From: an uncultured delta proteobacterium
GTDB taxonomy: Bacteria; Myxococcota_A; UBA9160; SMWR01
DNA length: 64,000 bases
NCBI GenBank assembly: GCA_963832165.1
Contig: CAWHTE010000007.1
Coordinates: 896,001 to 960,000, forward strand
Reading direction: 5' to 3'
Shown: positions 23,020 through 50,665 of the stretch, one piece after another
How the letters are laid out: every line of letters starts with the position of its first letter
Numbering within the stretch: position 1 is the stretch's first letter
The notes under the pieces: model-generated
Database searches by the model: none
What the model was told of the DNA's origin: nothing
What the model saw: the letters and a program-made list of their open reading frames with translations, nothing else
Made by a program: the position numbers and the translations under genes

Positions 23020-23145
23020 CGCCAGCGAACCGATCGGTACGCTCACCGAGGGCTTCCCTCGGGGGGCACTCGAAGCGCGCCTTCGGTTTCCACGCACATG
23101 CTCGATCGGCTGCTGAGCCGGTTCTTCTCGGCGAAGGGGAACGGG

Positions 23146-26100
23146 ATGGCGCTCGCTCGCTTTCTGGTGTCGCGCTGCTGGATCTTCGGTCTAGCCCTCA
23201 CTGCAACTAACGCCTCCGCGCAGCAGTCCCCGCTCGTCGAACCGCCCGGCGCGAACGACTACCGCGGGACGGGCGGTGTCTACAACATCCTCCCGGCGGG
23301 GCAGAAGGGCGTCTTCAGCCTGCTCGAGGAGGTGCAGATGGCGACGGTCTGCGATCCCCTCGGCCTGATCCGGCCGTGCTCGCGCAACGAGGCCGACTAT
23401 CCCGCGTACACGATCGACCAGCTGCTCATGTACGACGGGCTCCTGCGAGGCGCGCCCACACTCACCCCCGCGACGATCACCGACTACTTCAAGGACGCCA
23501 CGTTCGGCGTGCCCGCGGACAAGATCGCGCGCGAATACTCGCCGGGTGGACTCGCGGGCGTCGTGGTGATTCGCGACGTCGACTTCAACGTGCCGCGCAT
23601 CTACGCGAACAGCCGCAACGATGCGATCTTCGCCACCGGCTATGTCTCCGCCGAAGACCGGCTCTTCCTCATGGATGTACTGCGCCACGTCGGTCGCGGC
23701 CGGATGTCCGAGTTCCTCGGGCCGAGCCCGAGCAATCTCGCGATGGATCGCGATACCTATCGCGTCACGGGCTACACGGAAGCCGAGCTGCAGCAGATGG
23801 TCGACAACCTCGACGACCAGTACGGCACCTACGGCGCGCTCACGCAGCAGGGATTCCAGGATTTTGCCGACGGCGTCAATCAGTACATCGCGGAAGCGCT
23901 GCTCGACCCGAGCAAGCTCCCCGGCGACTATGTGACGCTGCAGCAGGTGCCCCTGCCCTGGAAGCCCACCGACACCGTTGCGATAGCGAGCTTGATTACG
24001 GGCATCTTCGGTGTGGGCGGCGGCGGCGAGCTCGGCAACTGCAAGTTCCTGCAGGAGCTCCAGACCCGCTACGGCAACGCTGTGGTTGCGCGTCAGGTGT
24101 TCGAGGACTTCCAGCAGGACGACGACCCCGAGAAGCCGCGCACCACCGACAACTCGTTCCCCTATCTCGTGCAGGGTCCCGTCGATCCCGCCGCGGTGGC
24201 GTGCCCCGATGCCGGCACTCTGCAGGCGGCGCTCCAGGGCGCGACGAGGATCGGTAACGGCTCGGTCGACGGTCCGGGCGGGCCGATCCCGTTGGCCGCG
24301 AAGTCGGCCGCGTCGAACGCTCTGCTCGTCGGTGCGTCGCGTTCTGCGACCGGGTACCCGATCGCCGTGTTCGGACCGCAGGTGAGCTACTTCTCGCCGG
24401 AGATCCTGACCGAGATCGAGGTGCACGCGCCCGGCGAGCCCGGCAATCCGCTCGCTCCCGCGATCGACGCGCGCGGCGCGGCGTTCCCGGGCATCAGCCT
24501 GCTCGTGCTGCTCGGGCGCGGCCGCGACTTCTCGTGGAGCGCGACGAGCGCCGGCAGCGATCTCGTCGACGTCGTCGCGGCGCCGCTGTGCGAGCCGGAC
24601 GGCTCCACGCCGACGGTCGCCTCGCGTCACTACCTCTACCTGGGCCAGTGCCTGCCGATGTATCAGCGCACGGACGTCTGGATCGCGAAGCCCGGTGCCG
24701 GCGGCATTCCCGCGTTTCCGCCCGCGCTGCCGACGCCTCAGATTCCGCCGCTCACGCCGGATCTCCTGAGCGATCCGCTGTTCATCCTCGGCCCGCCCGA
24801 TCTGCTCACGGGCAACATCCTGGTCACCGCGAAGGTGCTGCGCACGTCGCACGGCCCCGTGCAGTCGTTTGCGACCGTGAACGGGCAGCCGGTGGCCTAC
24901 GTGCGCCAGCGCTCCACGTGGTTCCACGAGCCCGACGCGGCGCCGTCCTTCCTCAAGATGAACAGCCCCGATCTCGTGACCGACGCCGCGAGCTTCCAGC
25001 AGGCGATGGGTACGATCGCGAACTCGACGTTCAATTGGTTCTACGTCGACAGCAAGAACATCGCGTTCGAGGTATCGGGCAACTATCCGATCCGGGCCGC
25101 CGGCATCGACCACGATCTGCCCTACTTCGCGACCGGTCAGTGGGACTGGCAGAACTGGAACCCGGCGACATTGACCGCCGACCGCATGTCGCAGCCGCAG
25201 CTCCCGAAGGACATCGACCCCGCGAAGGGCTACATGACCTCGTGGAACAACGCGCAGGCGCCGGGCTGGAACGCCGCGGACGCGAACCTCTCGTACGGAT
25301 CGCTGCACCGCAGCCAGCCGCTCGACGATCGGATCCTCGCGGATTCGTCGATCACGCAGACCGAGCTCGTGCAGTACATGGAGGACGCGGGCACCGTCGA
25401 CCTGCGCGGCGACAAGGTCGTGCCCGTGATCGCGCAGCTGCTAGGCGCGGCCACTGGCGATGCGAACGCCGATCTCGGGCTCTCGGTGCTCACGGCCTGG
25501 AAGGCCGCAGGCGCGCACCGGCGCGACCTCGACGGCAACGGCGTCTATGACCACGCCGCGGCCGTCGCGCTGATGGACCGCTGGTGGGTCCCGCTCACCG
25601 ACGCGGTGTTCGACACGCTCGGCCCCGCAGTTCGCGCGTCGATGCCGCTCGGTCGTCACGACGCCCCGGGACCGATGGGCTCCTCGTTCATCGAAGGCTG
25701 GTACGGGATCGTGCACAAGGATCTGCGCGGCGCGATCGCGGGCGCGCCGATCGCGCCGTTCTCGCGCGTCTACTGCGGCAACGGTGTGCTCGCAGACTGC
25801 AAGACCGCCGTGCGCAACAGCCTCGCCGCGGCAGTGGCATCGCTGGGCCCGAATCCCGCGACGTGGGATGCGAACGAGGCCGGCGACCGCATCCAGCTCG
25901 CCGCGGCGGGAACCGCCTCGGTCCCCGACATGGACTGGGTGAACCGACCGACGTTCCAGCAGGTGGTGGAGTACCGGCTCGACGCACAGAGCCCGGACAC
26001 TGACGGCGACGGCCGCAACGACGACAACGACAACTGTCCGTTCGTGGCGAACCCCGGCCAGCAGGACACGGGTGGACTCACGACTACGACTCCGGACGGG

Positions 26101-26364
26101 ATCGGCAACGCATGCCAGTGCGGCGACGTGACCGGGAACGGAATCGTGAACGGCCAGGACGCCGCCGTGATCAAGCGCCACGCGCTCCACCTGGAGCCGA
26201 ACCCGCTATTCGCGGTGCCCGGAAACTGCGACGTCACGGGCAACGGCCAGTGCAACGGCCAGGACTCCAACTCCGTGAAGCGCGCTGCGCTCGGGTCGCC
26301 GGGGCCCACGTTCGGCCAGAACTGCCACAACGCCACGGGTGATCCGCTGCCGCCGGGCCTCTGA
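23146..26364 (+). CDS. Secreted penicillin acylase family (Ntn-hydrolase) with C-terminal TSP3 repeat and dockerin-like domain
   Basis: Signal peptide; VPRIYA, GYVSAEDRLFLMDVLR, catalytic SNALLVG, FNWFYVD, SWNN, NRPTFQQVV; tail DTDGDGRNDDNDNCP...CQCGDVTGNGIVNGQD...CDVTGNGQCNGQD. Confidence 0.85.
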   Translation: MALARFLVSRCWIFGLALTATNASAQQSPLVEPPGANDYRGTGGVYNILPAGQKGVFSLLEEVQMATVCDPLGLIRPCSRNEADYPAYTIDQLLMYDGLLRGAPTLTPATITDYFKDATFGVPADKIAREYSPGGLAGVVVIRDVDFNVPRIYANSRNDAIFATGYVSAEDRLFLMDVLRHVGRGRMSEFLGPSPSNLAMDRDTYRVTGYTEAELQQMVDNLDDQYGTYGALTQQGFQDFADGVNQYIAEALLDPSKLPGDYVTLQQVPLPWKPTDTVAIASLITGIFGVGGGGELGNCKFLQELQTRYGNAVVARQVFEDFQQDDDPEKPRTTDNSFPYLVQGPVDPAAVACPDAGTLQAALQGATRIGNGSVDGPGGPIPLAAKSAASNALLVGASRSATGYPIAVFGPQVSYFSPEILTEIEVHAPGEPGNPLAPAIDARGAAFPGISLLVLLGRGRDFSWSATSAGSDLVDVVAAPLCEPDGSTPTVASRHYLYLGQCLPMYQRTDVWIAKPGAGGIPAFPPALPTPQIPPLTPDLLSDPLFILGPPDLLTGNILVTAKVLRTSHGPVQSFATVNGQPVAYVRQRSTWFHEPDAAPSFLKMNSPDLVTDAASFQQAMGTIANSTFNWFYVDSKNIAFEVSGNYPIRAAGIDHDLPYFATGQWDWQNWNPATLTADRMSQPQLPKDIDPAKGYMTSWNNAQAPGWNAADANLSYGSLHRSQPLDDRILADSSITQTELVQYMEDAGTVDLRGDKVVPVIAQLLGAATGDANADLGLSVLTAWKAAGAHRRDLDGNGVYDHAAAVALMDRWWVPLTDAVFDTLGPAVRASMPLGRHDAPGPMGSSFIEGWYGIVHKDLRGAIAGAPIAPFSRVYCGNGVLADCKTAVRNSLAAAVASLGPNPATWDANEAGDRIQLAAAGTASVPDMDWVNRPTFQQVVEYRLDAQSPDTDGDGRNDDNDNCPFVANPGQQDTGGLTTTTPDGIGNACQCGDVTGNGIVNGQDAAVIKRHALHLEPNPLFAVPGNCDVTGNGQCNGQDSNSVKRAALGSPGPTFGQNCHNATGDPLPPGL

Positions 26365-26519
26365 GCGGACTCGTTGATTCGATCGACGAACTAGTTCGCC
26401 CCGGAAACTCGCGCGGGCAAGTAGTTGCGCGGGCAGGAGGGCGAATTTCACCCCATAATTTTCAACCAACGGTTGTTAACTTCGGGCGATAATCATCGTC
26501 CCCTTAGGAGGATCCCCCC

Positions 26520-28100
26520 ATGAAGCCTTCCGATCGCTCGCTCGAGATTGCCGTGCTCGGGCTCGGGCAGGCCGGCGCGAACATCGCTGCCGAGTTCCAG
26601 CGCCGCGGCTACCGCTCACTCGCGTTCAACACCGCACGGACCGATTTCACGTCGCTGGGCGCGACGCTGCCCGAATCGCAGCGGATCCACATCGGGCTCG
26701 AGGGCTCCAACGGCGCGGGCAGCGACGTCGAGCACGGGCGCGAGTGCATCGCGGCCAACGCCGACCGGATCAAGTCCCTGGTCTCGGAGCACGCTGCGCT
26801 CGCCGACGTCGTCGTGATCGCCGCGGGCCTCGGCGGTGGCGCCGGCTCGTGCGCGGCCGACCTCGTCGAGCTCGTCCGGGAGCTCGATTTCCCGATCCTG
26901 GTGCTCACCGCGCTTCCGCATCATCACGAAAGCGGAATCAACAAGGTGAACGCGCTCTGCGCGATTCGCGATCTCGCGCAGTTGCCCGGATTCGGCTGGG
27001 TGATGATCGACGACGCGAAGCTCGCGCGACTCCATCACGACGTTCCGATCAGCTCGTATTTCGAGACGATCAACCGCGACATCGTCGAGCCGCTCGACAC
27101 GTTCAACCGGCTCAACGACCGCGAGTCGATCGCGCCGATCCGCACCCTCGACGCGGAAGACCTCCGCACGCTGCTGCTCGCGGGTGGCATCCTGAACTAC
27201 CACTCGCGCGTGCTGCCGAAGCTCAGCGTCGATGCGGTGCTCGAGACGGTGCGCGTCTCGCTCGCAGAGAACCCGATCATGCCGAGCGGGTCCGATCTCG
27301 CGAACGCGGCCTACCTCGGGATCGTGATCGAGGCCTCCGAGCGCGCGCTCGCCGAGAGCCCGTTCTCGCTCTTCGAGGAAGTCGCGGAGCAGACCAAGCG
27401 CGAGACCGGTGGCGCGGCGGTGTACCTGGGCCTGTATCGCGCGCTCGGAGTCGACGACGCGTCGGCGACCGTGCGCATCCTCTCGTGCACGCCCGCGCTT
27501 CCGTCTTCGATCGGCGAGATGATGGCCGAGGCGCAGCGCGAGGCCGGCGCGATCCAGCAGAAGGCCACGCGCCACGTAGACGGGCTCGACCTCGGCGGCC
27601 TCGAGCGCCTGCGCCCGACGCCGGTTCCGCACGTCGCGCGCTCGCGCCGCGGCGGCGACGCGAACGCCGCAGCGCCGGCGCCCGTGACCGCGAAGAAGGC
27701 GGCGCGCGTCGCGAATGAGCCGGCTCCATCGGTAGCGGTGACCGAGCCGGCGCCGTCCGTGGCGTCGAATCCGCCGGCCGCGCGCGCGCCGGCCACCCAG
27801 GCCTCGTCGCGCAATGGCGATTCCGGGGCGACGCTGCCGTCGCGCGGGCGCTACGAGCGGCTCGCAAACGCGTTCCGCGAGGCCACCGAGGACGACAAGC
27901 GCTCCAAGATCGGGGGCGAGCTCGTGTCGGCGCTGCAATCGAATGAGGCGCTCGAGCGCTTCTACGCGGTCAACGCGATGTCGCGCGTGAATCCGGGCTA
28001 CTTCAAGGAAGCGCTGCGGAAGGCCGCGCGCGACGCGGACCGCCACGTGTCGGACCTCGCACGTCGAGCACTCGAGAAGCTCACGGTCGGGCGCGACTGA
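26520..28100 (+). CDS. Divergent tubulin/FtsZ-superfamily GTPase with Pro/Ala linker and C-terminal HEAT-like domain
   Basis: RBS AGGAGG; GLGQAGANIA, AFNTA, NGAGSDVEHG, AGLGGGAGS, LDAEDLRTLL; tail LERFYAVNAMSR...LRKAARDADRHVSDLARRALEKL. Confidence 0.85.
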   Translation: MKPSDRSLEIAVLGLGQAGANIAAEFQRRGYRSLAFNTARTDFTSLGATLPESQRIHIGLEGSNGAGSDVEHGRECIAANADRIKSLVSEHAALADVVVIAAGLGGGAGSCAADLVELVRELDFPILVLTALPHHHESGINKVNALCAIRDLAQLPGFGWVMIDDAKLARLHHDVPISSYFETINRDIVEPLDTFNRLNDRESIAPIRTLDAEDLRTLLLAGGILNYHSRVLPKLSVDAVLETVRVSLAENPIMPSGSDLANAAYLGIVIEASERALAESPFSLFEEVAEQTKRETGGAAVYLGLYRALGVDDASATVRILSCTPALPSSIGEMMAEAQREAGAIQQKATRHVDGLDLGGLERLRPTPVPHVARSRRGGDANAAAPAPVTAKKAARVANEPAPSVAVTEPAPSVASNPPAARAPATQASSRNGDSGATLPSRGRYERLANAFREATEDDKRSKIGGELVSALQSNEALERFYAVNAMSRVNPGYFKEALRKAARDADRHVSDLARRALEKLTVGRD

Positions 28101-30222: not shown

Positions 30223-30425
30223 GCGATCTCCAAGCGAAGCCACAACGACAGCCGAAAAATCCGATGTCTGCGCATCGTCCCATGGCGGGGGTCCGCAGCG
30301 CAACCCGTGCCGGAATAAGGATGGGTCCGAGCGCGCGGTCGGACGGGCACGAGCCCCGCAACATGTCGAGAAAGATTGACTAACCGGTGCTCAAGCTCGG
30401 AACGGGGCATGTCGCTACGGCGCAG

Positions 30426-31415
30426 ATGGCATTCCCTCATTCTCACGCCGTGCGGCGCGCCCTCGGCGCTTGCCTCGTGCTATGGGCCTCGCTCGCGAGC
30501 CCGGCCTGGGCCGCCGGCGCGCCCGCCAACACCGCGATCAACAACACCGCGACGGTGACCTTCACCGATCCGGATGGCCAGCCGCAGACGATCAACTCGA
30601 ACACGGCCACGCTGCGCGTCGACGAGCTGCTCGGCGTCGCGGTCGTGAGCAACGATGCGGGCAACGTCGGCGTTCTGTCTCCGGACGACGACGATGCGCT
30701 CTCGTTCACGATCACGAACCCCGGCAACGGATCGGAGGCGTTCGCGCTCGCTGCGAACGCGGCCCTCGGTGGCGATGAATACGACCCCACCGACGTCCGG
30801 ATCTTCCTCGATGACGGCGACGGCGTGTTCGAGCCCGCGCAGGACACGCTCTATGTGGTCGGCGTGAATGATCCCGTGCTCGCGCCGGACCAGTCGCTCG
30901 TCGTGTTCATCTCGGCAGACACCCCGGCGGGCCACGCCACGGGCGATACCGCTGCGGCCCAGCTCACGGCGACCGCGGTCACGGGCAGCGGGACACCGGG
31001 CACCACGTTCGCGGGGCAGGGCACCGGCGGCGTGGACGCCGTGGTCGGCGCGACCACGGCGACCGCAGATGCGCAGGGCACCTACTCGGTGTCCCAGACG
31101 CTCACGACGCTCTCCAAGAGCCAGACCATCGAGGACCCGTTCGGCGGCACCAGCCCGGTTCCGGGGGCCGTGATCACCTACACGATCACGATGACGCTCG
31201 CGGGCTCCGGCACGATCACGGGCGCGCAGATCGACGACTCGATTCCCAGCAACACGACCTACGTCCCGGGGAGTCTGCGCCTCGATGGCCTGCCGCTCAC
31301 CGATGCCGCGGACGTCGACGCCGGGCAGTTCACCGGCAGCGCGATCGCGGTGAGCCTGGGCGCCGTCACGGCTCCCGGCTCGCACACCGTGGAATTCCAG
31401 GTCCAGATCAACTGA
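30426..31415 (+). CDS. Secreted DUF11-repeat protein, putative pilin A
   Basis: Signal peptide (..SPAWA), then AGAPANTAINNTATVTF..INSNTATLRV; C-terminal DUF11 TLSKS..DPFG..VPGAVITY..IDDSIP..TVEFQVQIN. Confidence 0.75.
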   Translation: MAFPHSHAVRRALGACLVLWASLASPAWAAGAPANTAINNTATVTFTDPDGQPQTINSNTATLRVDELLGVAVVSNDAGNVGVLSPDDDDALSFTITNPGNGSEAFALAANAALGGDEYDPTDVRIFLDDGDGVFEPAQDTLYVVGVNDPVLAPDQSLVVFISADTPAGHATGDTAAAQLTATAVTGSGTPGTTFAGQGTGGVDAVVGATTATADAQGTYSVSQTLTTLSKSQTIEDPFGGTSPVPGAVITYTITMTLAGSGTITGAQIDDSIPSNTTYVPGSLRLDGLPLTDAADVDAGQFTGSAIAVSLGAVTAPGSHTVEFQVQIN

Positions 31416-31429
31416 GGAGGTCCGCGACC

Positions 31430-31933
31430 ATGACGCGTCTTCACTATCGAACTGCGCTCGCCGGATTCACCGCCGCCTGGCTGCTTTTCGCCGTGGCGCC
31501 GCCGGCGGCGGGGGCCGATGGGCTCGAGCTCCGCAACGCCGTCTTCCAGGAGGTCGACGTCAAGGCGGCCGATGGAACCACGAGTCGCGAGCGCGTGCCC
31601 GCAGCGAAGGTCGTGCCGGGCACCGAGGTGATCTACGTGATCACCTATCGCAACGGGGGCGAGCAGCCCGCGACCGACGTCGTGATCACCAACCCGGTCC
31701 CGTCGGAGCTCGCCTACGTGCCCGAGGGCCAGCCCGGCGCGTCCGCGGCTCCCGAGGTCTCCGTGGACGCGGGCAAGCACTGGGGCGCGCTCGCTTCGCT
31801 GCGCGTGCTCGGGGCCGACGGCAAGCCGCGCGCGGCCCAGGGCAGCGATGTCACGCACCTGCGCTGGAAGCTCGGCGCCCCCGTTCGCGCCGGCGAAGAG
31901 GGGTCCGTCAGCTACCGCGCGGTCCTCGAATAA
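31430..31933 (+). CDS. Secreted single-domain DUF11-like protein (putative chaperone/terminator)
   Basis: RBS GAGGAGG; signal peptide; VVPGTEVIYVITYRNGG..ATDVVITNPVP..VTHLRW..SVSYRAVLE. Confidence 0.75.
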   Translation: MTRLHYRTALAGFTAAWLLFAVAPPAAGADGLELRNAVFQEVDVKAADGTTSRERVPAAKVVPGTEVIYVITYRNGGEQPATDVVITNPVPSELAYVPEGQPGASAAPEVSVDAGKHWGALASLRVLGADGKPRAAQGSDVTHLRWKLGAPVRAGEEGSVSYRAVLE

Positions 31934-31996
31934 CACGATTTCCGTGATCTGAAGAAGAACCAGAACCAGTTACACGCTGAACCAGAAGCAGGAGCG

Positions 31997-33104
31997 ATGA
32001 TCCCCATGAGACCCTTCCACTCGAGATTCCTCGCCGTCCTCGCGGGCACGCTGTTCGCAGCCGCCCAGGCGGCCGCCCTCGGCGCCGATACCAATGCAGG
32101 GACGGACATCAGCAACACGGCCACGGTCGACTACGTGGTGGGCACCGTGAACCAGCCCGACGTGAACTCCAACACGGCCACCTTCGAGGTCGACCGGAAG
32201 CGTCCTCCTGACCGTCGCCGAGGTCGGCGGCGCCTACACGGACGTGGCGCCCGGCGATGTCGAGCAGGCGCTCACGTTCACGGTCACCAACGACACCAAC
32301 GGGCCGGTCGACTTCCGGCTCGTCGCCAGCCAGGACGCCACCGGGACCACGGAGGCTCACGGCGGCACGGACGACTTCGATGCGGCCACCCCCGTGGTGA
32401 TCATCGATTCGAACGGCAGCGGCAGCTACGAGGTGGGCGTCGACACGGGATCCTTCCTCGACGAAGTTCCCGAAGGCGCGACGCGCACGGTGTTCATCGT
32501 ATCGACGATCCCGATTCGCCAGCCCAACGGCGACACCGCGGGTCTCACGCTCACGGCGCACGCGGCCCTGGCCGGCGTCGCCGCGACGCTCGGCGCAGAC
32601 CTCGCCGAGAGCGCTAGCGACGATCGGACCGACGGTCATCGACACGGTGCTCGCCGACATCGCGGGCGATACCGACGGAGCGCGCGACGGCGCCCACAGC
32701 GACGACGACGCGTACCGCATCCAGACCGCGACGCTCACGGTGACCAAGACGTCCACCGTGATCAGCGATCCGTTCAACAACCTCGCCAATCCCAAGCGCA
32801 TTCCGGGCGCGGTGGTCGAGTACTGCGTCACGGTGGAGAACGGCGGAGACGCGGATGCCACTCTCCGTGGTGCTCACCGACGTCCTGACCGGCCAGCCGG
32901 TGACCTATCAGGCGAGCAGCCTGTTCACGGTGGACACGGGCGCCGACTGCACGGGTGGCGACGCGGAAGACGACGACGCCGCCGGGGCGGACGAGACGGA
33001 CGACAACGGCGCCTCGGAGAGCTTCCGGGACGGTTTCGGCGACGTTCCAGACCGTGCCGGCCGGTGCCGGCAAGGCGATGCGCTTCCGTGTGACGATCAA
33101 CTAG
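31997..33104 (+). CDS. Secreted DUF11-repeat protein, putative pilin B (about four frameshifts near 32200, 32630, 32863, 33030)
   Basis: Joined frames: signal peptide, TNAGTDISNTATVDY..VNSNTATFEVD, LTFTVTND, TLTVTKTSTVISDPFNNLANPKRIPGAVVEY, VVLTDVL, final KAMRFRVTIN-stop at 33104. Paralogous to 30426-31415. Confidence 0.7.
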
Positions 33105-33225
33105 GCGTCGCGAATCGTGCTCCGAGGCAGCGGGTGCGCCGGATTCCGGCGCACCCGCTGCACGCAGCGCGAGCGGCCGCATGTACTGCGAGCGCGTGAG
33201 GTCGGTTTGGCGCCGCTATCTCGCG

Positions 33226-36200
33226 ATGGCGCGCCAGACGACCGCGCGGACGGCGCTCGGCGTGCTTCTGGTGGCCGCTTTCGGCGCCCAGGCGGCCACC
33301 GTCTCGAACACCGCGCGGCTCTCCTACCTCGATCCGACCGGCGGACCGGTCGATCAGCCCTCGAACACGGTCACGTTCCAGACTGCCCCGGGCCTCTCTC
33401 CCGGACTAGTGACACTTCTGCGTTTCGCACCCGGCGGGGGTTTGGCACAGCCGACCCAGGCGGACGGAGCGTCATGCGGAAACGGTGCGGGCGGATTCTG
33501 CGCCGTCGCCCTCGCTCTGGGCGAATGGCGGCGCGCTCGATCTCTCCGCACCGGTGCCGCTGCTCGACGCCACGTCGTATCACGCGGGCGAGCCCGTATT
33601 CCTCACACTCACCGACTCGAATCGCAACGCGGATCCACTGCTGCGCGAAACGATCGACGTGCGCATCACGACGAGCGGCGGCGACCAGGAAGATCTGCGC
33701 CTGCAGGAGACTGGACCCGACACGGGCATGTTCGCGGGTGGAATCCAGAGCGCGCGCATTCCGCCACCTCTCGCGGCCTTCGATTGCCGGCTCTCTCTTC
33801 CCGAAAACACCATGCTCTCCGCGGACTACGTCGATGCGATGGACGCGTCCGACACCAGCGAGGATCAGGCGCTCGTCGACCCGTTCGGGTTCGCGTTCGA
33901 TTCGGCGAGCGGGACCCCGATCGATGGCGCGCAGATCACGTTGATCGACGTCGACACCGGATTGCCAGCGACCGTATTCGGCGACGACGGCACGAGCGCC
34001 TTTCCCGCGAGCGTCACGACGGGCGGCAGCGCCACGGACAGCGGAGGCGCGCTCTACACCTTCCCGCCAGGTGGCTTTCGCTTCCCGGTCGTCCCGACTG
34101 GCAACTATCGCTTCGAGATCACGCCGCCGCCGACCCACTCGGCGCCTTCGACCGTTCCGCCGAGCGTGCTCGCCGACGTACGGAGTCCGAGTGGCGACCC
34201 GTATGCGATCGTCACGGGCTCGTTCGGAGATGTCTTCGTGGTGATGCCGGGCCCGACGCTGCGCATCGACGTGCCACTCGATCCGCTCGGCGCCGGTGGA
34301 CTCTCGCTCGAGAAGCTCGCGTCGCGCGAAGAGGTCTGGGCGGGTGACTTCGTGCAGTACCAGCTGCGGCTGCGCAACGCGAGCGCGGCGCTCGGTACCG
34401 GTGTGCAGCTCACCGACGTGCTGCCGTTCGGGTTCCGCTACCAGTCGAGCTCGCTGCGCTACGGCGGGCTGCGGCGGCCGGACCTGCCGCCCCCGCTCGA
34501 AGCGGGCGACGGGCGCACGCTGACGATCCCGGCGGGCGACCTTCGCACCGGGCGCGACGCTGCTCGTCACCTACGTGGCCGAGGTCACGGCGGGCGCGCC
34601 GCCCGGCGACGCGGTCAACAGCGCGATCGGCCGCGCGGACGGCGGCGTCACCACGAACCAGGCGAATGCGTCGGTGCGCGTGAAGGAGCCGTTCTTCGGC
34701 AGCTGCGCGGTGCTGGTCGGCCGCGTCGTGGAGGGCGAGTGCACCACGCCACAGGAAGAGCTCGGCGGCGTCGGAAACGTCCGCCTGCTGCTCGACGACG
34801 GCACCTACACCAGCACCGACCCGAACGGCCAGTTCCACTTCGAGAAGGTCTGCGACGGAACGCACGTGGTGCAGCTCGATCTCGAGAGCCTGCCGCCCGA
34901 CAGCGAGGTGATTCCGTGCATCCAGAACACGCGCTTCGCGGGCCGCTCGTTCTCGCAGTTCGTCGACGTGCAGGGCGGCACGCTCTGGCGCACCGACTTC
35001 TACGTGCGGCGAAAGCCGAACGCATCGGGCGCTCCCGCTGCTGAGACCACACCGGCGCCGAAGCCGGCGCCCCCGGCCCCGGACGCGCTCGCGGCGCGCG
35101 CGCCGCGATCCCCGACGACGTGATCGCGGCGGGCGGAAAGATCGACTGGCTCCAGGAGGCGATGCGCGCGGCCGGCCCGGGATGGCTGTTCCCGCGCGAG
35201 AACCACAATCCGCGCGCGCCCACGCTGCGCGTCGCGATCCGACACGATCCGGCGCATCACGTCGAGCTCTCGAACGGCGGCACGCCCGTCGACCCGCTCA
35301 CGTTCGACGGCACCCAGATGAGCGCCGACGGCCGCATCGCGGTGAGCGTGTGGCGCGGCATTCCGCTCGTCGAGGGCGACAACGAGCTCGTCGCGCGCGA
35401 TCGTGGACAAGGCCGGCAACACGGTCATGAAGCTCTCGCGCGTGATCCACTTCGCGAACGCACCCGCGCGCGCCGAGCTCGTGCCCGAGCAGTCCGTGCT
35501 CGTCGCCGACGGAATCGCCAAGCCGGTGATCGCCGTGCGCCTGCTCGATCGCGACGGAAGGCCCGTACGCGCCGGTATCACCGGGTCCGTTCACGATCGG
35601 ACCGCCCTACGTGCCGAAGAATGCAATCGACCAGCAGCAGCGGCGCCAGCTCGCGGGTCTGGATCGCTTCCAGCCCACGTATCGCGTCGAGGGCGACGAT
35701 GGCATCGCCTACATCGAGCTTCAGCCCACCACCGAGAGTGGCCAGGTGGTGCTCGACTTCGCGTTCCAATCCGATCGCGAGCTCGAGCACAACGTGCGGC
35801 ACGAGCAGCTGCGCACCTGGCTCGAAGCCACCCAGCGCGACTGGGTGATGGTCGGCTTCGCCGAGGGATCGCTCGGTTACGAGACGCTGTCCGGGAACAT
35901 GGAGGCGCTCGACGAGACCGGACACGAGGACGACGACGAGGTCACGACGGACGGCCAGATGAGCTTCTACACGAAGGGGCGAGTGATCGGGAAGTGGCTC
36001 TTGACCGTCGCCTACGAGTCGGATCGCCACGAGCAGATGCCGGTCCGCGACGACGAGACGCTCGCCGCAGGTGATCGACCCCGACGAGTTCTACACGATC
36101 TACGGCGACGGCAGCGAGCAGCGCTACGGCGCGCCGAGCCAGAAGAAGCTCTACGTCAAGCTCGAGCGGCCGCAGTTCTACGCGCTGTTCGGCGACTACG

Positions 36201-38503
36201 AAACCGGCCTCACGCAGACCGAGCTCGCGCGCTACAGCCGCTCGCTCACGGGCTTCAAGTCGGAGTACGGCGGCTCCGTTTTCCAGTACAACGCGTTCGC
36301 GTCGGATACGGCGCAGCGCTACGTGCGCGACGAGATCCAGGGCGACGGCACGTCGGGGCTCTACCGCCTGTCCGGCCGGCACATCGTGATCAACAGCGAG
36401 AAGATCGCGCTCGAGACGCGCGACCGGCTCCAGAGCCACGAGATCCTCGAGAGCCGCGTCCTGCTGCGTCACATCGACTACGACATCGACTACACCAACG
36501 GCACCCTGTTCTTCCGCGAGCCGATCTTCTCGCGCGACACGGCCTTGAATCCGATCTTCATCGTGGCCGACTACGAAGTCGAGGACGGCGGCGAGGACGA
36601 GCTCAACGCGGGCGGGCGCGCATCGACCCGGCTGCTCGACGGCCGGCTCGAGGCGGGCGTGTCGTTGATCCGCGACGCCGAGGCGTCGAGCGAGACCGAC
36701 CTCGGCGGCGTCGATCTGAAGGTGAAGCTCCTTCCCAACACCCAGCTGCGCCTCGAAGCGGCCGGCAGCAAGGGCGAGCTGGCCGGGGATGACCTCGAGG
36801 GGGGCGCCTACCTCGCCGAGATCGAGCATTTCGGCGAGCGCTTCGACTCCGTGGTGTACGCGCGGCGTCAGTCTGACGAGTTCGGGGTCGGCCAGCAGTT
36901 CAGCGCCGAGTCCGGCCAGGAGAAGCAGGGCCTGCTCGGCCGCGTGCCGCTCGGCGAGAAGACCGCGATCACGGGCGAGGCCTATCGCCAGGAGAATCGG
37001 ACCAGCGAGGTGGAGCGCCTGGCCGGCGTGATGCGTCTCGAGCGCAGCTTCGAGAAGGGCAAGGTGTTCGGCGGCGCACAGTACGCGCGCGACGAAGACT
37101 CGCAGGGCGACGAGTTCGAGTCGCAGCAGATCGTACTCGGCGCGAGCCGCAAGTTCCTCGCCGACAAGCTCGAGCTGCTCGGTCAGGGCGACGTGTCGAT
37201 CGGCGGCAAGGACGACAGCATCGACTTCCCGAGCCGTTACCTCGCGCAGGCCGGCTACGACCTGACCAAGTCCGTGAAGCTGATCGTCGCGGAGGAGGTC
37301 ACGAGCGGCTCCTCGTTCGACACCCAGACCACGCGCGCGGGTGCGATCGTGAATCCGTGGAAGGGCGCGAAGCTGAACAGCACCGTCAACCAGGACCTCG
37401 GCGAGTACGGTCCGCGCACGTTCGGATTGCTGGGCCTCACGCAGTCCGTGCTGCTCGGCGAGCGCTGGGGCGTGGACGTCGGCGTCGACCAGAGCACGAC
37501 CTTCGCGGGCTCGCGCCGCGCGGATCAACCTCCGCAGATCAACCCGGGCTATCCGATCGCTGCGGGATCGGGGCACGTGGCGCGCACCGCGACCGGCACC
37601 CCGGGTGTGTTTGGCCTGTCCACCGAGGACTTCATGGCCGTGTCGGCCGGCGCCACGTACCGCGCGGACCTCTGGTCTTTGAACACGCGCGGCGAGCTGC
37701 GCGATGGCGAGAGCGACGACCGCTGGGGCGTGGTGGCGAACTTCCTGCGCGAGGCTCGCGCGGGCGTCGCGTTCGCGAGCTCCGGGCGCTTCTTCGAGGC
37801 CGAGCGCGCGGGGGGTACCGAGGGACTGTTCGGTAGCGTCGACCTCTCATGGGCCTATCGCCCGCTCGGCAGCCGCTGGTCGCTGCTCGACCGGCTCGAA
37901 TTCAGCCTCGATCAGCTCGACGGCGGCACGGGCGTGCCGGGCTCCGGTTTGTTCGGCGCCAACAGCCTCACGACGACCGGCGACGCCGTCTCGCGTGCGG
38001 TGGTCAACAACTTCAACCTGAACCGCGTCTCGCGCGCGTGGACCGCGAAGGACCGCAAGGGCAATCTCTTCGACCTGAACCAGCGCAACCAGTGGTCGTT
38101 CTACTACGGCTCGAAATACTCGTTCGACGAGTATGACGGCGTCTCGTACACGGGCTACACGGATCTGATCGGTGCGGAGTGGCGCTTCGATCTCACGACC
38201 TGGCTCGACATCGGCGCGCAGACCTCGATGCTGCACTCGTGGAACGCCGAGAACTACCAGTTCTCGGCCGGTCCGTCGGTGGGCTTCTCGCCGATCGCGA
38301 ACAGCTGGATCAGCATCGGCTACAACGTGATCGGATTCCGTGATCCCGACTTCGACGCGGCGCGCTACACCGCGCAGGGCGTGACCTTGAAGCTGCGAAT
38401 CAAGTTCGACCAGCTGACGCGTCTTCCGGGTCACGACAAGGACGATCCGCGCGCGGTCAGCCCGTTCGCGTGGCCGGGCCGTGCCGAGGGCGAGCCGCGA
38501 TGA
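33226..38503 (+). CDS. Large (~1,760 aa) outer-membrane protein: N-terminal NTA segment, Ig/DUF11/SdrD-B-like domains, C-terminal beta-barrel (about six frameshifts)
   Basis: Pieces in ORFs 33181, 33485, 34575, 35120, 35403, 35611 and 36071 follow each other without gaps. Signal peptide ..AQA/ATVSNTARLSY; complete DUF11 LEKLAS..TDVLP..AVNSA; many amphipathic strands ending GYNVIGFRD..GVTLKLRIKF. Confidence 0.7.
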
Positions 38504-39999
38504 GGGTATGGAAGGCGATCGCACTGCTCGCGCTGCTGGCGACGCTGGCCCCCGAGGTCGCACGCGCCTACGGCGTGAACCAGTGTGCCGGCGATCGCTT
38601 CGGGTCGAACCTCGGCTGCACTGCCAACGACGTCCAGATCACGAACATGCAGGCGCTGAGCGCGCCGCCGTCGTGTGTGGGCGGCGGGACGATCTCGCTC
38701 GATCTCCTGCTCACGGTCAACTTCGGCAGCGCGAGCCGCTGGGACGTCGGCATCTTCCTCTCGAACGATGGAAAGAATCCGCAGCTCACGGTGGCCAACG
38801 GTGGATCGAACAGCTGCTCGGTGGCGATCCTGCCGACGACGAGCCCATTCCTGAATCTCGACTCGAACGGCGGCACGGATACCTGCGGCGACGGCAACAG
38901 CTCGATCGGGGGTGGAACGGGCAGCGGCCAGTTCGTCATGACCAACGTCACCGTGAAGTGTCAGGCGCTCAGCAGTAGTGGTCAGCTCTGGGTGCCATTC
39001 GTCGTGAGCTGGGACAACCAGGCCAGTCCGTCGGGCCTCACGTGCCGGACGGTCGCCGATCCGGTGCCGAACACGAAGTCGAAGTGCAACGCGCCCGTGA
39101 TCGGGCTGACGCCGCAGGTGATCGTGTTGCCCACGATCACGAAGACCGACGGAAAGACCCAGATCACGCCGGGCGAACCCAATACGTATACGATCGCGAT
39201 CACGAACAACACCGGCATCACCCTCTCCGCGGGCAACGGCAACGCGGCGCTGTTCAAGGACCCGGCCGTCACCAATCTCGCGGTGAGCAGCGTCACCTGC
39301 GCCGTGACCACGGGCACGGCCACGTGTCCCGCCGCCGGCAGCGTGACGGTGGCGGCGATGCAGGGCGCCGGGATCACGATCCCGTCGATGGCGGATGGCA
39401 GCGTCGTGACCTTCACCGTGAATGCACAGCTCAATGGGAACCCCACCGGCACCCTCACCAACGTCGCGACCGTGACGTCGAACGGGCAGACTGCGAGCGC
39501 GAGCGACGCGGATACGATCGTCTACCCGAGCCTCGTCAACGTGAAGAGCTCGCAGGCGGTGAGCGATCCATACAACGGCACCACCAACCCCAAGCGCATT
39601 CCCGGCGGTGCCGTGCGCTACGACGTCGCGGTCAGCAACACCGGGCCCGGCACCGTCAACACGGATACGCTCTTCGTCTACGATGCGGTTCCCGCCAGCA
39701 CCGATCTCTACGTCACCGACATCGGAGGGGCGGGGTCGGGACCGGTCGCGTTCAGCAATGGCTCCCCCACGAGCGCGCTCACCTATACGTTCACCTCGCT
39801 CGCGAGCACCACCGACGATCTCAGCTTTTCGAACAACGGCGGCGCCACGTACAACTACACCCCGGTCCCGAACGGGAACGGGGTGGACCCGACCGTCACG
39901 CACCTGCGCATCAACCCGAAGGGCACGTTCGCGGGCGACCCCGTGGCGGGCGCTCCCAGTCCGATCTGCACGATGAGTTTCCGCGTTCGCATCGAGTAA
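38500..39999 (+). CDS. Secreted Cys-rich DUF11 protein, putative tip adhesin
   Basis: ATGA overlap with the barrel gene; signal peptide; Cys-rich N-domain; complete DUF11 (TITKTD..FKDP..TLTNVATV); C-terminal VKSSQAVSDPYNGTTNPKRIPG..YDAVP..MSFRVRIE. Confidence 0.72.
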   Translation: MRVWKAIALLALLATLAPEVARAYGVNQCAGDRFGSNLGCTANDVQITNMQALSAPPSCVGGGTISLDLLLTVNFGSASRWDVGIFLSNDGKNPQLTVANGGSNSCSVAILPTTSPFLNLDSNGGTDTCGDGNSSIGGGTGSGQFVMTNVTVKCQALSSSGQLWVPFVVSWDNQASPSGLTCRTVADPVPNTKSKCNAPVIGLTPQVIVLPTITKTDGKTQITPGEPNTYTIAITNNTGITLSAGNGNAALFKDPAVTNLAVSSVTCAVTTGTATCPAAGSVTVAAMQGAGITIPSMADGSVVTFTVNAQLNGNPTGTLTNVATVTSNGQTASASDADTIVYPSLVNVKSSQAVSDPYNGTTNPKRIPGGAVRYDVAVSNTGPGTVNTDTLFVYDAVPASTDLYVTDIGGAGSGPVAFSNGSPTSALTYTFTSLASTTDDLSFSNNGGATYNYTPVPNGNGVDPTVTHLRINPKGTFAGDPVAGAPSPICTMSFRVRIE

Positions 40000-45749: not shown

Positions 45750-45792
45750 CGCAACGCCGCGCCGGGTATCGATTTTGCGTGAGGATCGCGCG

Positions 45793-47310
45793 ATGACGAA
45801 CGCCGCCCCTGCCCGAGGACGAGCAGGCGCGATCCATCTCGACGTGAGGGCGCTCGTCGCGGCGTGGACGGGCGATCGACCCAGCCCAGAGTTCTGGATC
45901 GAGACGGACGCGATCCAGAGCGCGCGGCGCGAGATCGAGAAGGCGCTCGGCAGCCGGCCCGATCCGATCCTGATCACGGGCCCGAGCGGCCGCGGAAAGT
46001 CGCACCTCTTGCGTTCGCTCTGGTATCGCCCGCTGAGCGGATATGCACCCACGGTGGTGCCGTCCTCGACCGCCGAGCCCGATCGGATCGCAGCCCAGAT
46101 CCTCTCGGCGACGCGCGCGGGCCAGGTCCACGACGCCGACGCCGCGCTGACGCGTCTCTTTTCAGCAAAAGCGCTGCGCGGTGACGTCCCGGTTCTGCTC
46201 ATCGACGACCTGCACTCGATGCCCCACGCCAGCCTATCGCACTTGCTCTCGATCGCTGATGCTTCTCGCGTCGAGGTGAGGGTGATCGCTGCGGGATTGG
46301 AGGGACCCGCGCTGGAGGCGGTGGTTCCGATCCTTCCGGGGCGGATCCTCAGGGTCGAGATCGCCGATTCCTGGACCCGCGCCGACGCAGAGCGCCTGAT
46401 CACGCGCATCGCCGAGGCGATCAAGGCCGAGCCGGAGAAGCTGCTCGCGCAGATCGATATCGACGAGGTGATTCGCGCTTGCGATGGCAATCCCCGCCTC
46501 GTGCGCGCCGCGCTCGCGCAGCAGCTCGACGCGCTGGGCCTGGACCGCCTGAAGGCCGAGCAGGTGTCGGCTCCGGCAACGGCGCCCGAGGTTCCTGCGA
46601 GTTCCGAGCGCGTCGATTCTGCGGCAGTGCCTCCGATCGCGTCATGGAGCTCGGCCCGGGTTCCGCTTTCGGAGCGCATGGCGCCCCTCCGCGCGGGGCT
46701 CGCGCAGCCGACCAAGTCAGGGGTGCGGCTGCTCGCGCGACTGTTCGCGTCGCGTCCCGATGTGCGGCTGCGCGGGTCGTCCAAACACGCGCGACAGATC
46801 ACCTTCGCAGGGATCGCCGCCTGCATCGCGATCGCATGGCTGTTCGATCGCGGCTTCGCGATCGCCGCATGGTCGGCGGGCACCGCGTCCGCCTATCGCG
46901 CGGACGTTCTGCGACGAGCCGATGCGTCTGCGCCGCCCGAGTCCGCGGCGGTGCAAGAGCCCGTGATGGAGAGTGCCGAGGTCGATGTCGAGGCCGCGCC
47001 GGTGGAGACCGCGCCGGTGGAGCCCGCCGAGCCGCCGATCCGAGTGGCCGTGAACTCCGACCCGTGGGCGGAGGTGCAGGTGGATGGAATCGTCGCGGGC
47101 ACCACGCCGTTCACGCTCGAACTCACCCCGGGTCTGCACCGCTTCCGCGCCGTGATGGCGGATGGACGCGTGGTCGAGCAGGACCACGAGATCGCGCCGG
47201 GCCGAGATCGCGTGGTATTCCGTCAGGACGTCGCGGAGAAGAGCGACAAGAGCGCGCGGACGCCCTCTGCGAAATCCGGCTCGGGCACGAGCAGGGACAC
47301 GACGAGGTAG
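45793..47310 (+). CDS. ExeA/GspA-like AAA ATPase with TM segment and C-terminal PEGA domain
   Basis: ITGPSGRGKS, LLIDDLH, CDGNPRLV; TM ITFAGIAACIAIAWLF; VNSDPWAEVQVDG..GTTP..LTPGLH. Confidence 0.7.
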   Translation: MTNAAPARGRAGAIHLDVRALVAAWTGDRPSPEFWIETDAIQSARREIEKALGSRPDPILITGPSGRGKSHLLRSLWYRPLSGYAPTVVPSSTAEPDRIAAQILSATRAGQVHDADAALTRLFSAKALRGDVPVLLIDDLHSMPHASLSHLLSIADASRVEVRVIAAGLEGPALEAVVPILPGRILRVEIADSWTRADAERLITRIAEAIKAEPEKLLAQIDIDEVIRACDGNPRLVRAALAQQLDALGLDRLKAEQVSAPATAPEVPASSERVDSAAVPPIASWSSARVPLSERMAPLRAGLAQPTKSGVRLLARLFASRPDVRLRGSSKHARQITFAGIAACIAIAWLFDRGFAIAAWSAGTASAYRADVLRRADASAPPESAAVQEPVMESAEVDVEAAPVETAPVEPAEPPIRVAVNSDPWAEVQVDGIVAGTTPFTLELTPGLHRFRAVMADGRVVEQDHEIAPGRDRVVFRQDVAEKSDKSARTPSAKSGSGTSRDTTR

Positions 47311-49528: not shown

Positions 49529-50665
49529 ATGCTGACTGCTGATCGCGACCCGTTCTCGAACACCGCCGATCCGGCCGCGTACATCCCGCGCACCGCGACG
49601 GAGTTTGCGCTGGTTCAGCTCGAGATGGCGCTGCACGACGGCTGCGGCGTGTTATGTCTCGAAGGGCCGGCGGGATCCGGCAAGACGCTGCTCTTGCACG
49701 TGCTCGAGGAGCGGCTCGCGGGAGATTTCTCCACGCTGCGCGTGCCGTATCCGATGCTCGATCCCGACGAGTTCTGTCGCTGGGCTCTCGACGCGCTAGG
49801 CGGCGACCTATCGGCGCCCGATCCCGGGAGCGCGCTCGCGGTGCGCATCGACCGCCTGGCTTCGTCCGGCAAGCCGCTCATCTGGATGATCGACGACGCC
49901 GACAGCATGCCCGCCTCCACGCTGCGTCGTCTGTTGCAGCTGCAGCGCAGTGCGGGCGATGCGCTGCGCCTGCTGCTCACGCGTTCGGGCGAGCTCGTGA
50001 TCGACGAGCTCGCGCAGGCCGGTGTCGCTCCCGAGATCGTCGAGCTCGAGGGCGAGATGGACCGCTCGGAGATGGCGCAGTACGTGCGCGCGCGCCTCGA
50101 CCGCTCGGGCGCTCCACCCGACGAGCGCGAGCAGATCGAGAGCGCGCTCGATCGTCTCTACGCGCGCTCGCACGGGAATCCCGGCCAGCTGCACGCGGCC
50201 GCGGCGGTGCTGCTCTGCTTCGGCTTCGACCGGCTCTGCGCGCTTCCCGCAGACGGGCCCGCAGAATCGCCCGTTCAGGGCGATGTCGCTGCGGCGGTCC
50301 CGGACGAGCGCGTTTCGATCGAGTCGCTAGTCGCAGAGGCGGTTGCGGCGGAGCAGCCCGCGGAGGAGATCACCGCCGCGCTCGATTTCTCACCGGATCC
50401 CGAGTCCGAGCCCGACCCCCAGCCCGATCCCCAGCCGGCGAGGGCTCCGAAGCGGATCCGCCTGCGCGGCGGCTCGGCCGGCGCTAACCGCCAAAGGAAC
50501 CCCCATTGCCGCGCGCTCGTCTGTTCACGGCGATCTCTGGACTCGTCTTTGTCGCTCTGTTGTTGCCGAGCTGCGTTCGCACCGTCGATTCGGGGCACGG
50601 CGCCGTGCTCTGGACGCTGTTCAGCGGCACACAGGAAGAGGTCTATGGCGAGGGTGTGCACCTGA
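49529..50665 (+). CDS. ExeA/GspA-like AAA ATPase with acidic/Pro-rich tail (true end may be near 50487)
   Basis: DPFSNTADPAAY, LEGPAGSGKT, WMIDDAD, YVRARL, SHGNPG. The ORF overlaps the next gene by 160 bp, suggesting a 3' frameshift. Confidence 0.7.
   Translation: MLTADRDPFSNTADPAAYIPRTATEFALVQLEMALHDGCGVLCLEGPAGSGKTLLLHVLEERLAGDFSTLRVPYPMLDPDEFCRWALDALGGDLSAPDPGSALAVRIDRLASSGKPLIWMIDDADSMPASTLRRLLQLQRSAGDALRLLLTRSGELVIDELAQAGVAPEIVELEGEMDRSEMAQYVRARLDRSGAPPDEREQIESALDRLYARSHGNPGQLHAAAAVLLCFGFDRLCALPADGPAESPVQGDVAAAVPDERVSIESLVAEAVAAEQPAEEITAALDFSPDPESEPDPQPDPQPARAPKRIRLRGGSAGANRQRNPHCRALVCSRRSLDSSLSLCCCRAAFAPSIRGTAPCSGRCSAAHRKRSMARVCT

Follow-up and report, generated by a model that had tools for sequence, protein, structure and literature searches.

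The stretch of DNA analysed here, referred to below as the window, comprises 64,000 nucleotides of contig CAWHTE010000007.1 (positions 896,001 to 960,000, forward strand) from an uncultured delta proteobacterium. At 26520..28100, on the plus strand, it encodes a protein of 526 amino acids (P0001) identified as a TubZ-like tubulin with a HEAT-like tail on the basis of its open reading frame (ORF), its Pfam match, an AlphaFold model and its codon usage. A Shine-Dalgarno sequence, AGGAGG (26506..26511, plus strand), lies 8 nt 5' of the ATG, at the end of an intergenic gap of 155 nt that is AT-rich in part. Searches at the gene for a sigma-70 promoter consensus and a terminator consensus, in its vicinity for an iteron array, and among the window ORFs for a small tubR-like gene on its 5' side were all negative. 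Its codon usage is native (70th percentile among 1047 long ORFs of contigs C7 and C11), the contig that carries it is 1.07 Mb long, and its neighbours in the window are metabolic. A Pfam scan of the 51 window ORFs returned no plasmid, phage or integrase family and none of the division and cell wall (dcw) cluster, in keeping with the initial annotation, which saw no dcw and no plasmid or phage partition genes nearby. The window is ordinary chromosome.

The protein assembles a tubulin core, a long helix, a disordered linker and a small helical domain. Pfam Tubulin (PF00091) matches it with 54.5 bits for a cut-off of 33, and a 79-sequence alignment gave an AlphaFold model with a mean predicted local distance difference test (pLDDT) score of 86.9. 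The core (residues about 8-328, 26541..27503, plus strand as for all features below; Pfam, model and structure matches) encompasses the GTPase and activation domains; it is complete in the model and exhibits the two-domain tubulin fold. It is followed by a 27-residue C-terminal helix, H11 (329-355, 27504..27584), comparable to that of TubZ and PhuZ and aligned to TubZ through residue 348-353. Directly after H11, the family alignment reveals a motif, LDLGGLERL (27585..27611; LDLGE[IL]E in the family), with L356 kept in 76, D357 in 73, L358 in 78 and G359 in 73 of the 79 members. This LDLGx[IL]E motif is a candidate "acidic knuckle" that would grip the next subunit. The linker (residues ~365-440, 27612..27839), rich in Ala, Pro, Arg and Ser, is of low confidence in the model and ranges from 36 to 243 amino acids over the family. 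No transmembrane segment was detected in the protein, its maximal 19-residue hydropathy being 1.57.

The C-terminal domain (residues 441-524, 27840..28091) is defined by the model, the alignment, and structure and profile matches. It forms five helices, also when folded in isolation (pLDDT 92.8), and harbors two conserved motifs, R[FY]YAVxAM and D-x-D-x-x-V. Its structural matches are HEAT and other alpha-solenoid proteins with Z scores of 11.1 at most, a non-specific range, and its region matches alphaRep with an E-value of 0.0024. The HEAT_2 profile recognizes 35 of the 79 aligned members at E<=0.01, the query itself being without a match. TOG domains are composed of six HEAT repeats with tubulin-binding loops. 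The tail described here amounts to ~2.5 repeats, and TOG chains match it at Z 7.8-8.9, mixed among unrelated solenoids.

Two Tubulin-family matches are found in the genome, the query and a canonical ftsZ. The product of the latter scores 155.5 bits and ends in the peptide LDVPTFLRR; its gene adjoins ftsA, ftsQ, murB/C/G, ftsW, murD and mraY in a dcw cluster whose genes were identified from their translations. P0001 shares with FtsZ the fold and a catalytic Asp at the end of T7. It differs by the absence of an LDVPTFLRR-type end peptide, of an FtsZ_C domain (0/79 members) and of a dcw context, by a T7 loop reading RTLDAED instead of NxDxxD, by its helical end, and by a score of 57.1 bits with the FtsZ equivalog TIGR00065, for a cut-off of 295.2. 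Its identification as canonical FtsZ is excluded: the protein has a tubulin fold but is not FtsZ. A high-scoring FtsZ also occurs in seven of eight other Myxococcota-type carriers checked, the eighth giving a split match.

Most of what the initial annotation had read from the letters holds. The ORF and the motifs GLGQAG, NGAGSD, GGGAGS, IDDA and LDAEDL are present as quoted; the Pro/Ala linker and helical HEAT-like end coincide with the linker and five-helix tail of the model, the latter being found in 62 of 79 loci; the FtsZ C-terminal peptide is indeed missing from a protein that ends in a helical domain; and the view of a solitary, non-division member of the tubulin superfamily agrees with the TIGR00065 score and with the separate dcw ftsZ for which it had suggested looking. 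Its "helical segment" exists as well, at 329-355, but proves to be a TubZ-type H11.

The best structural match of the model is Bacillus cereus TubZ (4ei7; Z 37.8, root-mean-square deviation 2.5 over 340 residues including H11), followed by B. thuringiensis TubZ (Z 35.2), CetZ2 (32.4), the best FtsZ (29.4) and tubulins (26.8 at most). A phage tubulin heads the matches in a viral structure library (E 7.5e-27); the best E-value in the PDB, a different library, is 3e-20. At E<=0.01, the TubZ-like_C profile matches 35 of the 79 members, though not the query, while CetZ_C, FtsZ_C, Tubulin_2 and Tubulin_C match none. The reference sequences of the trees are annotated plasmid and phage genes as well as archaeal loci tied to PDB entries; BtubAB, eukaryotic and Asgard tubulins were not among them. 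The 61-row LG+C20 tree recovers a monophyletic family (100/100), joined to a wider bacterial clade (97/97), within a group of TubZ, PhuZ and phage tubulins (98/92) and apart from CetZ (100/99) and FtsZ (100/100); a 125-row quick tree agrees. The approximately unbiased (AU) test on 35 rows rejects a grouping with bacterial FtsZ (p 3e-35). The same test rejects neither a grouping with CetZ (p 0.115) nor one with all FtsZ (p 0.169), so that a TubZ origin is favoured, not proven. TubZ and the phage tubulins are thus the favoured closest kin of the family, rather than CetZ or eukaryotic tubulin. The phylogeny envisaged at the initial annotation places the query outside bacterial FtsZ and outside the CetZ clade, and the CetZ/tubulin-like reading of its motifs gives way to a favoured affinity with TubZ.

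The rejection of the bacterial FtsZ grouping also argues against the idea that the protein modulates host FtsZ by co-polymerizing with it or sequestering it, as paralogues do in Hyphomicrobiales. The co-occurrence with a canonical FtsZ would fit, and a division-inhibiting paralogue is reported in PMC13732431; however, the Hyphomicrobiales paralogues are FtsZ duplicates, and the present family has no divisome neighbours. Such a role appears very unlikely.

CetZ (archaea and some Chloroflexota; 4b45, 4b46, 3zid) resembles the family by a GQAGG T1, a DN in T6, its nature as a chromosomal non-division tubulin, and Z scores of 31-32. Unlike CetZ, where T7 reads DASE/DASD and the CetZ_C domain (PF21011) is present in all 120 CetZ-type proteins listed for comparison, family members end T7 in Asp and none of the 79 possesses CetZ_C. 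Membership of CetZ is ruled out on this count and by the monophyly of CetZ without the family (100/99), the sister position standing at p 0.115. A related suggestion is that of a CetZ-like cytoskeleton acting at the envelope in cell shape or motility. It could draw on the GQ-type T1 and the Asn-less T7 common to CetZ, on the CetZ2 match (Z 32.4) and the tolerated sister position, and on fusions in the wider clade that provide a link to wall and shape proteins (five to Cds6_C, one of them also with YkuD, and one to PilM/FtsA). Yet TubZ has the same T1 and T7 features, CetZ_C is absent, there is no transmembrane segment and no shape or motility neighbour, and the fusions lie outside the HEAT-tailed family, which makes this suggestion unlikely.

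The FtsZl1 and FtsZl2 proteins (Makarova and Koonin 2010, PMC2875224) are also bacterial non-FtsZ proteins with extra C-terminal domains. The family differs from them in lacking Tubulin_2 (0/79), a long coiled coil and a 300-amino-acid alpha/beta C-terminal region, in its intact T6-H7-T7 segment and in the absence of an operon; an FtsZl identity is ruled out on the first three of these. BtubAB, eukaryotic and Asgard tubulins are more remote in structure, with Z scores of 26.4-26.8 and no Tubulin_C in the family (0/79). To note, two archaeal loci (L125, L138) encode tubulin-like proteins of 460-470 amino acids; in the PDB, the first matches Asgard tubulins and gamma-tubulin best (E 1e-17 to 1e-13).

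TubZ/RepX (4ei7, 2xka, 3v3t) is the tubulin of type III plasmid partition. Beyond the best structural match and the common tree branch, both have an H11, a flexible tail and a [LF]DxxD/E-type T7 without Asn, and TubZ-like_C is found in 35 of the 79 members. In contrast to TubZ, at ~22% identity, the family is chromosomal and solitary, no TubR, tubC or TubY was found with it, and its tail ends in a folded HEAT-like domain past the linker of 36-243 residues. Whereas the reference TubZ genes have small ORFs upstream, in the tubR position, a small co-oriented ORF precedes the tubulin gene in only 5 of 70 family loci. An intact type III partition system is ruled out by the absence of adjacent tubR, of tubC iterons and of a plasmid or phage location. 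The protein might still drive DNA segregation as a type III motor in trans, using an adaptor encoded elsewhere to act on the chromosome or a secondary replicon. The TubZ-like fold with its H11 and tail logic, and a wider-clade protein fused to a ParA/MinD domain (P0206), speak for it; the near-absence of small upstream genes (none in the window), the lack of iterons and the lack of any family-level plasmid or phage match (two distant records each) speak against it and leave it extremely improbable.

In PhuZ and the tubulins of large phages (A0A6J5RW92; IMG/VR loci L154-L162), as in the family, a short acidic/hydrophobic motif is conserved just after H11. Unlike PhuZ, the family is host-encoded, PhuZ proper is distant on the tree and the query falls outside its clade. 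Among the nearest outside relatives is a phage tubulin group with 38-43% identity, on viral contigs in 9 of 18 loci and beside helicase genes; its members have an N-terminal extension and no HEAT tail. These N-extended tubulins (L154-L162) lie mostly on viral contigs of low GC content, next to helicase, DnaB-like and glycosyltransferase (sugar-modifying) genes, and at a further locus (L150) a tubulin adjoins prohead protease and major capsid genes; this phage tubulin group is apparently uncharacterised so far.

The gene is not the orphan that the initial annotation took it for. The homologue search retrieved 93 proteins, 92 besides the query, at E<=0.001 among 8000 scored; 79 of them were aligned, the 14 omitted being fragments, short or distant matches and one close relative (P0009). 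Of 429 pattern matches in GTDB genomes, 125 were confirmed as family stretches; 79 loci were listed, all in metagenome-assembled genomes. Their host labels are Myxococcota, Polyangia-level taxa or Deltaproteobacteria in 67 cases and other or generic bacteria in 10, the remaining two being distant non-members. The HEAT-like tail is encoded in the same ORF as the core in 62 loci; five run off the contig and 12 end without a tail match. A family gene is present in five of the seven genomes of the source's own genus (two matches partial) and in none of the 34 other genomes searched in its family and order, in at least 4 of 301 genomes of a phylum sample, and in at least 29 of 151 genomes of the order of one Polyangiaceae-labelled carrier. 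In the ESM Atlas, one automatically named cluster of 51 members combines Tubulin, TubZ-like_C and HEAT_2, with Myxococcota as commonest phylum; a metagenome scan with the wider clade gave eight loci, one of them close. In plasmids and phages, and on viral contigs, only distant matches were found, and the query has no PHROG match. Two carriers with small genomes (2.7-2.9 Mb; L088, L089) retain the gene, whose surroundings there include dnaN, carotenoid genes and a type III secretion system/flagellar-type ATPase.

No conserved operon or family-wide neighbour emerged from 80 regions, synteny being lineage-specific: the commonest neighbour cluster, kinase-like by eye, occurs in 23 of them and GreB in 12. 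Between the query and two same-genus copies, the core has nonsynonymous divergence (dN) of 0.24-0.27 for a synonymous one (dS) of 0.69-0.73. The gene is solitary and chromosomal, evolves under purifying selection and has a conserved modular build. The family tree tracks host labels, the 15 Polyangiaceae and 4 Sandaracinaceae rows requiring one change each when unlabelled rows are not counted. Sequences labelled Sandaracinaceae enclose the query in this tree (SH-aLRT, the Shimodaira-Hasegawa-like likelihood ratio support, 93), which suggests a transfer of the gene into the genus of the source.

A captured phage tubulin could also have been turned against phages, co-assembling with or capping the spindle of large phages, with hydrolysis-poor variants as dominant poisons; a hydrolysis-dead PhuZ is reported to disturb phage DNA positioning. 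Close outside relatives on viral contigs, a solitary and patchy gene and the suggested transfer would all fit such a case. Several observations argue otherwise: synteny with housekeeping-type genes such as greB (12 loci) and msrA is stable, the tree follows host family labels, identity to phage tubulins is so low that co-assembly is doubtful, and no defence-type family lies nearby according to the Pfam scan alone, no dedicated defence-system search having been made. The proposal is considered quite improbable.

The nucleotide loops separate the query from most of its family. The family consensus is canonical: GLGQAGGN in T1, DGAG[SA]D in T3, GGGTGS in T4, DN in T6 and RTLDGED in T7. In the query, T1 reads GLGQAGAN (26559..26582; GLGQAG at residues 14-19), with a G20A change found in no other member; T3 reads GSNGAGSD (26703..26726; NGAGSD at 64-69) for a family GxDGAG[SA]D, hence D64N; T4 reads GLGGGAGS (26826..26849; GGGAGS at 105-110), the Ala108 codon being 26841-26843; T6 has DD (27009..27014, within IDDA 163-166) where 76 of 79 members have DN; and T7 reads RTLDAED (27141..27161; LDAEDL at 210-215), without the FtsZ-type Asn. 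These assignments come from the alignment. Ala108 aligns with Thr100 of phage c-st TubZ and corresponds to Thr108 of Escherichia coli FtsZ, as numbered by a mutagenic primer given in PMC5979038. Asp214, at the end of T7, aligns with Glu200 of c-st TubZ, a catalytic residue according to PMC5322520. The departures of the query from near-invariant residues (G20A, L43F, D64N, Y72H, T108A and N165D) all lie in or beside the nucleotide loops, apart from one linker-edge column.

An Ala in T4 occurs in one and DD in T6 in three of the 79 members, so that both are traits of a sub-lineage and not of the family; that Ala in T4 would define the family is ruled out. The T4 Thr itself is lost in 20 members, replaced by Ile in 17 and otherwise by Ala, Val or Leu, while 59 keep GGGTGS. 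In a tree calculated without the motif columns, these 20 rows come out as a single clade (SH-aLRT 95), with the Thr present in every one of the other 59. Within the clade, Gly106 of T4 is changed to Glu or Asn in 14, Asp211 of T7 to Gly in 11, and T3 is variable. Sites that are near-invariant outside the clade are broken within it at 7 of 20 positions in T3, T4 and T7 against 5 of 63 elsewhere (Fisher p 0.006), or 6 of 19 (p 0.016) without the defining Thr, in a test that takes sites as independent and in which the loops were chosen by the analyst; three of the five broken sites elsewhere lie in T1 or T2. All 20 retain E137, D164, N185, R208 and the T7 acid, and their activation domain, H11 and tail have hardly changed. 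Three other loci of the same genus retain GGGTGS; the erosion is thus a recent one.

The effect of such changes is known from other tubulins. In E. coli FtsZ, T108A (GGGAG) brings GTPase activity near zero while rings still form, without treadmilling (PMC5979038; also PMC13732431). TubZ T100A assembles, and its GTP-bound subunits rise to 20% at most, from 4% (PMC5322520). By inference from the loop sequences, nucleotide handling would be altered in the 20-member sub-lineage; the initial annotation, which raised this possibility, may thus be right for the sub-lineage but is not supported for the family as a whole.

The same changes might instead reflect decay: the family would be a normal, dynamic TubZ-like filament and the sub-lineage would be under relaxed selection, its GTPase deteriorating and the gene being lost or only the tail mattering. 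The varied, non-convergent changes in T2, T3, T4 and T7 over the 20 rows are compatible with this, as are the presence of the gene in only one genus of its order (41 genomes searched) and a 176-amino-acid copy (L079:7980-8507) in which an in-frame deletion joins residue ~116 to the HEAT tail and T4 reads GEGIGS. The deletion may be genuine or an assembly error. However, all 20 Thr-less proteins are full length, the residues listed above and their activation domain, H11 and tail are preserved as described, average identities among P0001-P0023 (22 rows, 20 of them Thr-less) reach 74% for the core and 76% for the tail, and the Ile found in 17 of 20 looks fixed rather than drifting. Decay is accordingly judged unlikely as well.

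The reading to which we give about even chances is that of a domesticated TubZ-type filament whose tail docks a partner and which is slowed in this sub-lineage. Quite probably, an ancestor captured the tubulin from the plasmid and phage TubZ radiation, after which the TubR/tubC DNA adaptor disappeared and a HEAT-like domain on a tether was added. There is equally good reason to expect that the protein would bind GTP and form head-to-tail protofilaments in which Asp214 of T7 completes the site of the neighbour while H11 and the LDLGx[IL]E motif clamp the next subunit; contacts with the next subunit and the recruitment of partners are the part played by H11 and the tail behind it in TubZ and PhuZ (PMC3678025, PMC5322520). 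The HEAT-like tail would probably project from the filament and dock one conserved protein partner; with a DNA adaptor replaced by a tethered protein-docking domain, the filament may position or scaffold a cellular cargo unrelated to division. Finally, the balance tips, slightly, towards the loss of the T4 Thr and the erosion of T3 and T7 slowing or abolishing hydrolysis in the 20 members, including the query: filaments with eroded GTP-cutting loops may be slow or static, and a treadmilling filament may so have become a long-lived scaffold. A bolder version, which we regard as tentative and rather doubtful, would see a new cytoskeleton of Myxococcota and related bacteria derived from a phage or plasmid tubulin with a swappable C-terminal cargo module (HEAT-like in the query; Cds6/YkuD, PilM/FtsA, ParA or HD in relatives), acting here as a hydrolysis-poor or pseudo-GTPase static scaffold whose own HEAT domain is possibly a built-in assembly factor.

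Several points weigh against the domesticated filament. Identity to any solved homologue is at most 24%, and the AU test tolerates the CetZ and all-FtsZ groupings. Distribution is patchy, and no conserved neighbour names a partner. As for the slowed sub-lineage, the Fisher test carries the assumptions given above, the branching at the base of the Thr-less clade, where the query is placed, lacks resolution, and the internal deletion with a degenerate T4 fits decay. The Ala108 codon GCC is one base from ACC (Thr) and the assembly shows a frameshift near the tubulin gene, so that the exact Ala108 is provisional.

Known bacterial non-FtsZ tubulins are mostly those of plasmids and phages (TubZ, PhuZ) or are confined to few lineages (BtubAB, CetZ-like proteins of Chloroflexota). 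A family conserved on Myxococcota chromosomes, with a docking domain of its own, would add to the bacterial cytoskeletons and exemplify the takeover of a mobile-element filament by a cell. It also provides a natural paired experiment, GGGTGS members standing beside a clade with the change used in the laboratory to stop treadmilling, so that the purpose of GTP hydrolysis can be tested directly on natural proteins of one family. The family is without a name among curated NCBIfam and Pfam models, and no published description was found in a search that did not extend to subscription journals and in which supplementary trees of phylogeny papers could hold unlabelled members; the string "Myxococc" is absent from the main text of PMC9871819, PMC13732431 and bioRxiv 10.64898/2026.02.15.705738. 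This tubulin family of myxobacteria and their kin is apparently undescribed.

The gene directly upstream of the tubulin in the window (23098-26364) encodes a penicillin amidase fused to TSP3 and dockerin-like repeats, which is also found near the tubulin in locus L073. Two AAA_22 ATPases, which we take to be ExeA-like, are encoded at 45775-47307 and 49529-50662, ~18-23 kb from the tubulin; their closest relatives flank the tubulin in two related loci, on both sides in L087 and upstream in L073. As a partner of the tubulin, they constitute a weak lead. At 30387-39996 lies a cluster of DUF11-type exported proteins, one paralogue of which (~31997-33200) is split across reading frames. This suggests that the assembly contains indel errors; frameshifts also seem to affect the mur genes of locus L003 (12232-16811). 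ARAGORN calls a tRNA-Asp with an ATC anticodon at 46862-46955, within an ORF, which is probably spurious.

The wider clade, whose named members belong to Zixibacteria, Fibrobacterota and the FCB group, has some members with other tails: Cds6_C in 5 of 83 proteins scanned, besides single cases of PilM/FtsA, ParA and HD. The Cds6_C (NTF2-like) fusions are P0161, P0165, P0166, P0171 and P0185, with P0240 noted alongside; one shows a weak match to the YkuD L,D-transpeptidase, and one cluster member of these fused tubulins is labelled Zixibacteria. P0145, P0206, P0186 and P0207 are single fusions to PilM/FtsA (actin-like), ParA/MinD, HD or glycosyltransferase domains. The P0206 cluster (ParA/MinD) contains three members and that of P0145 one, and some of these fusions may be artefacts.

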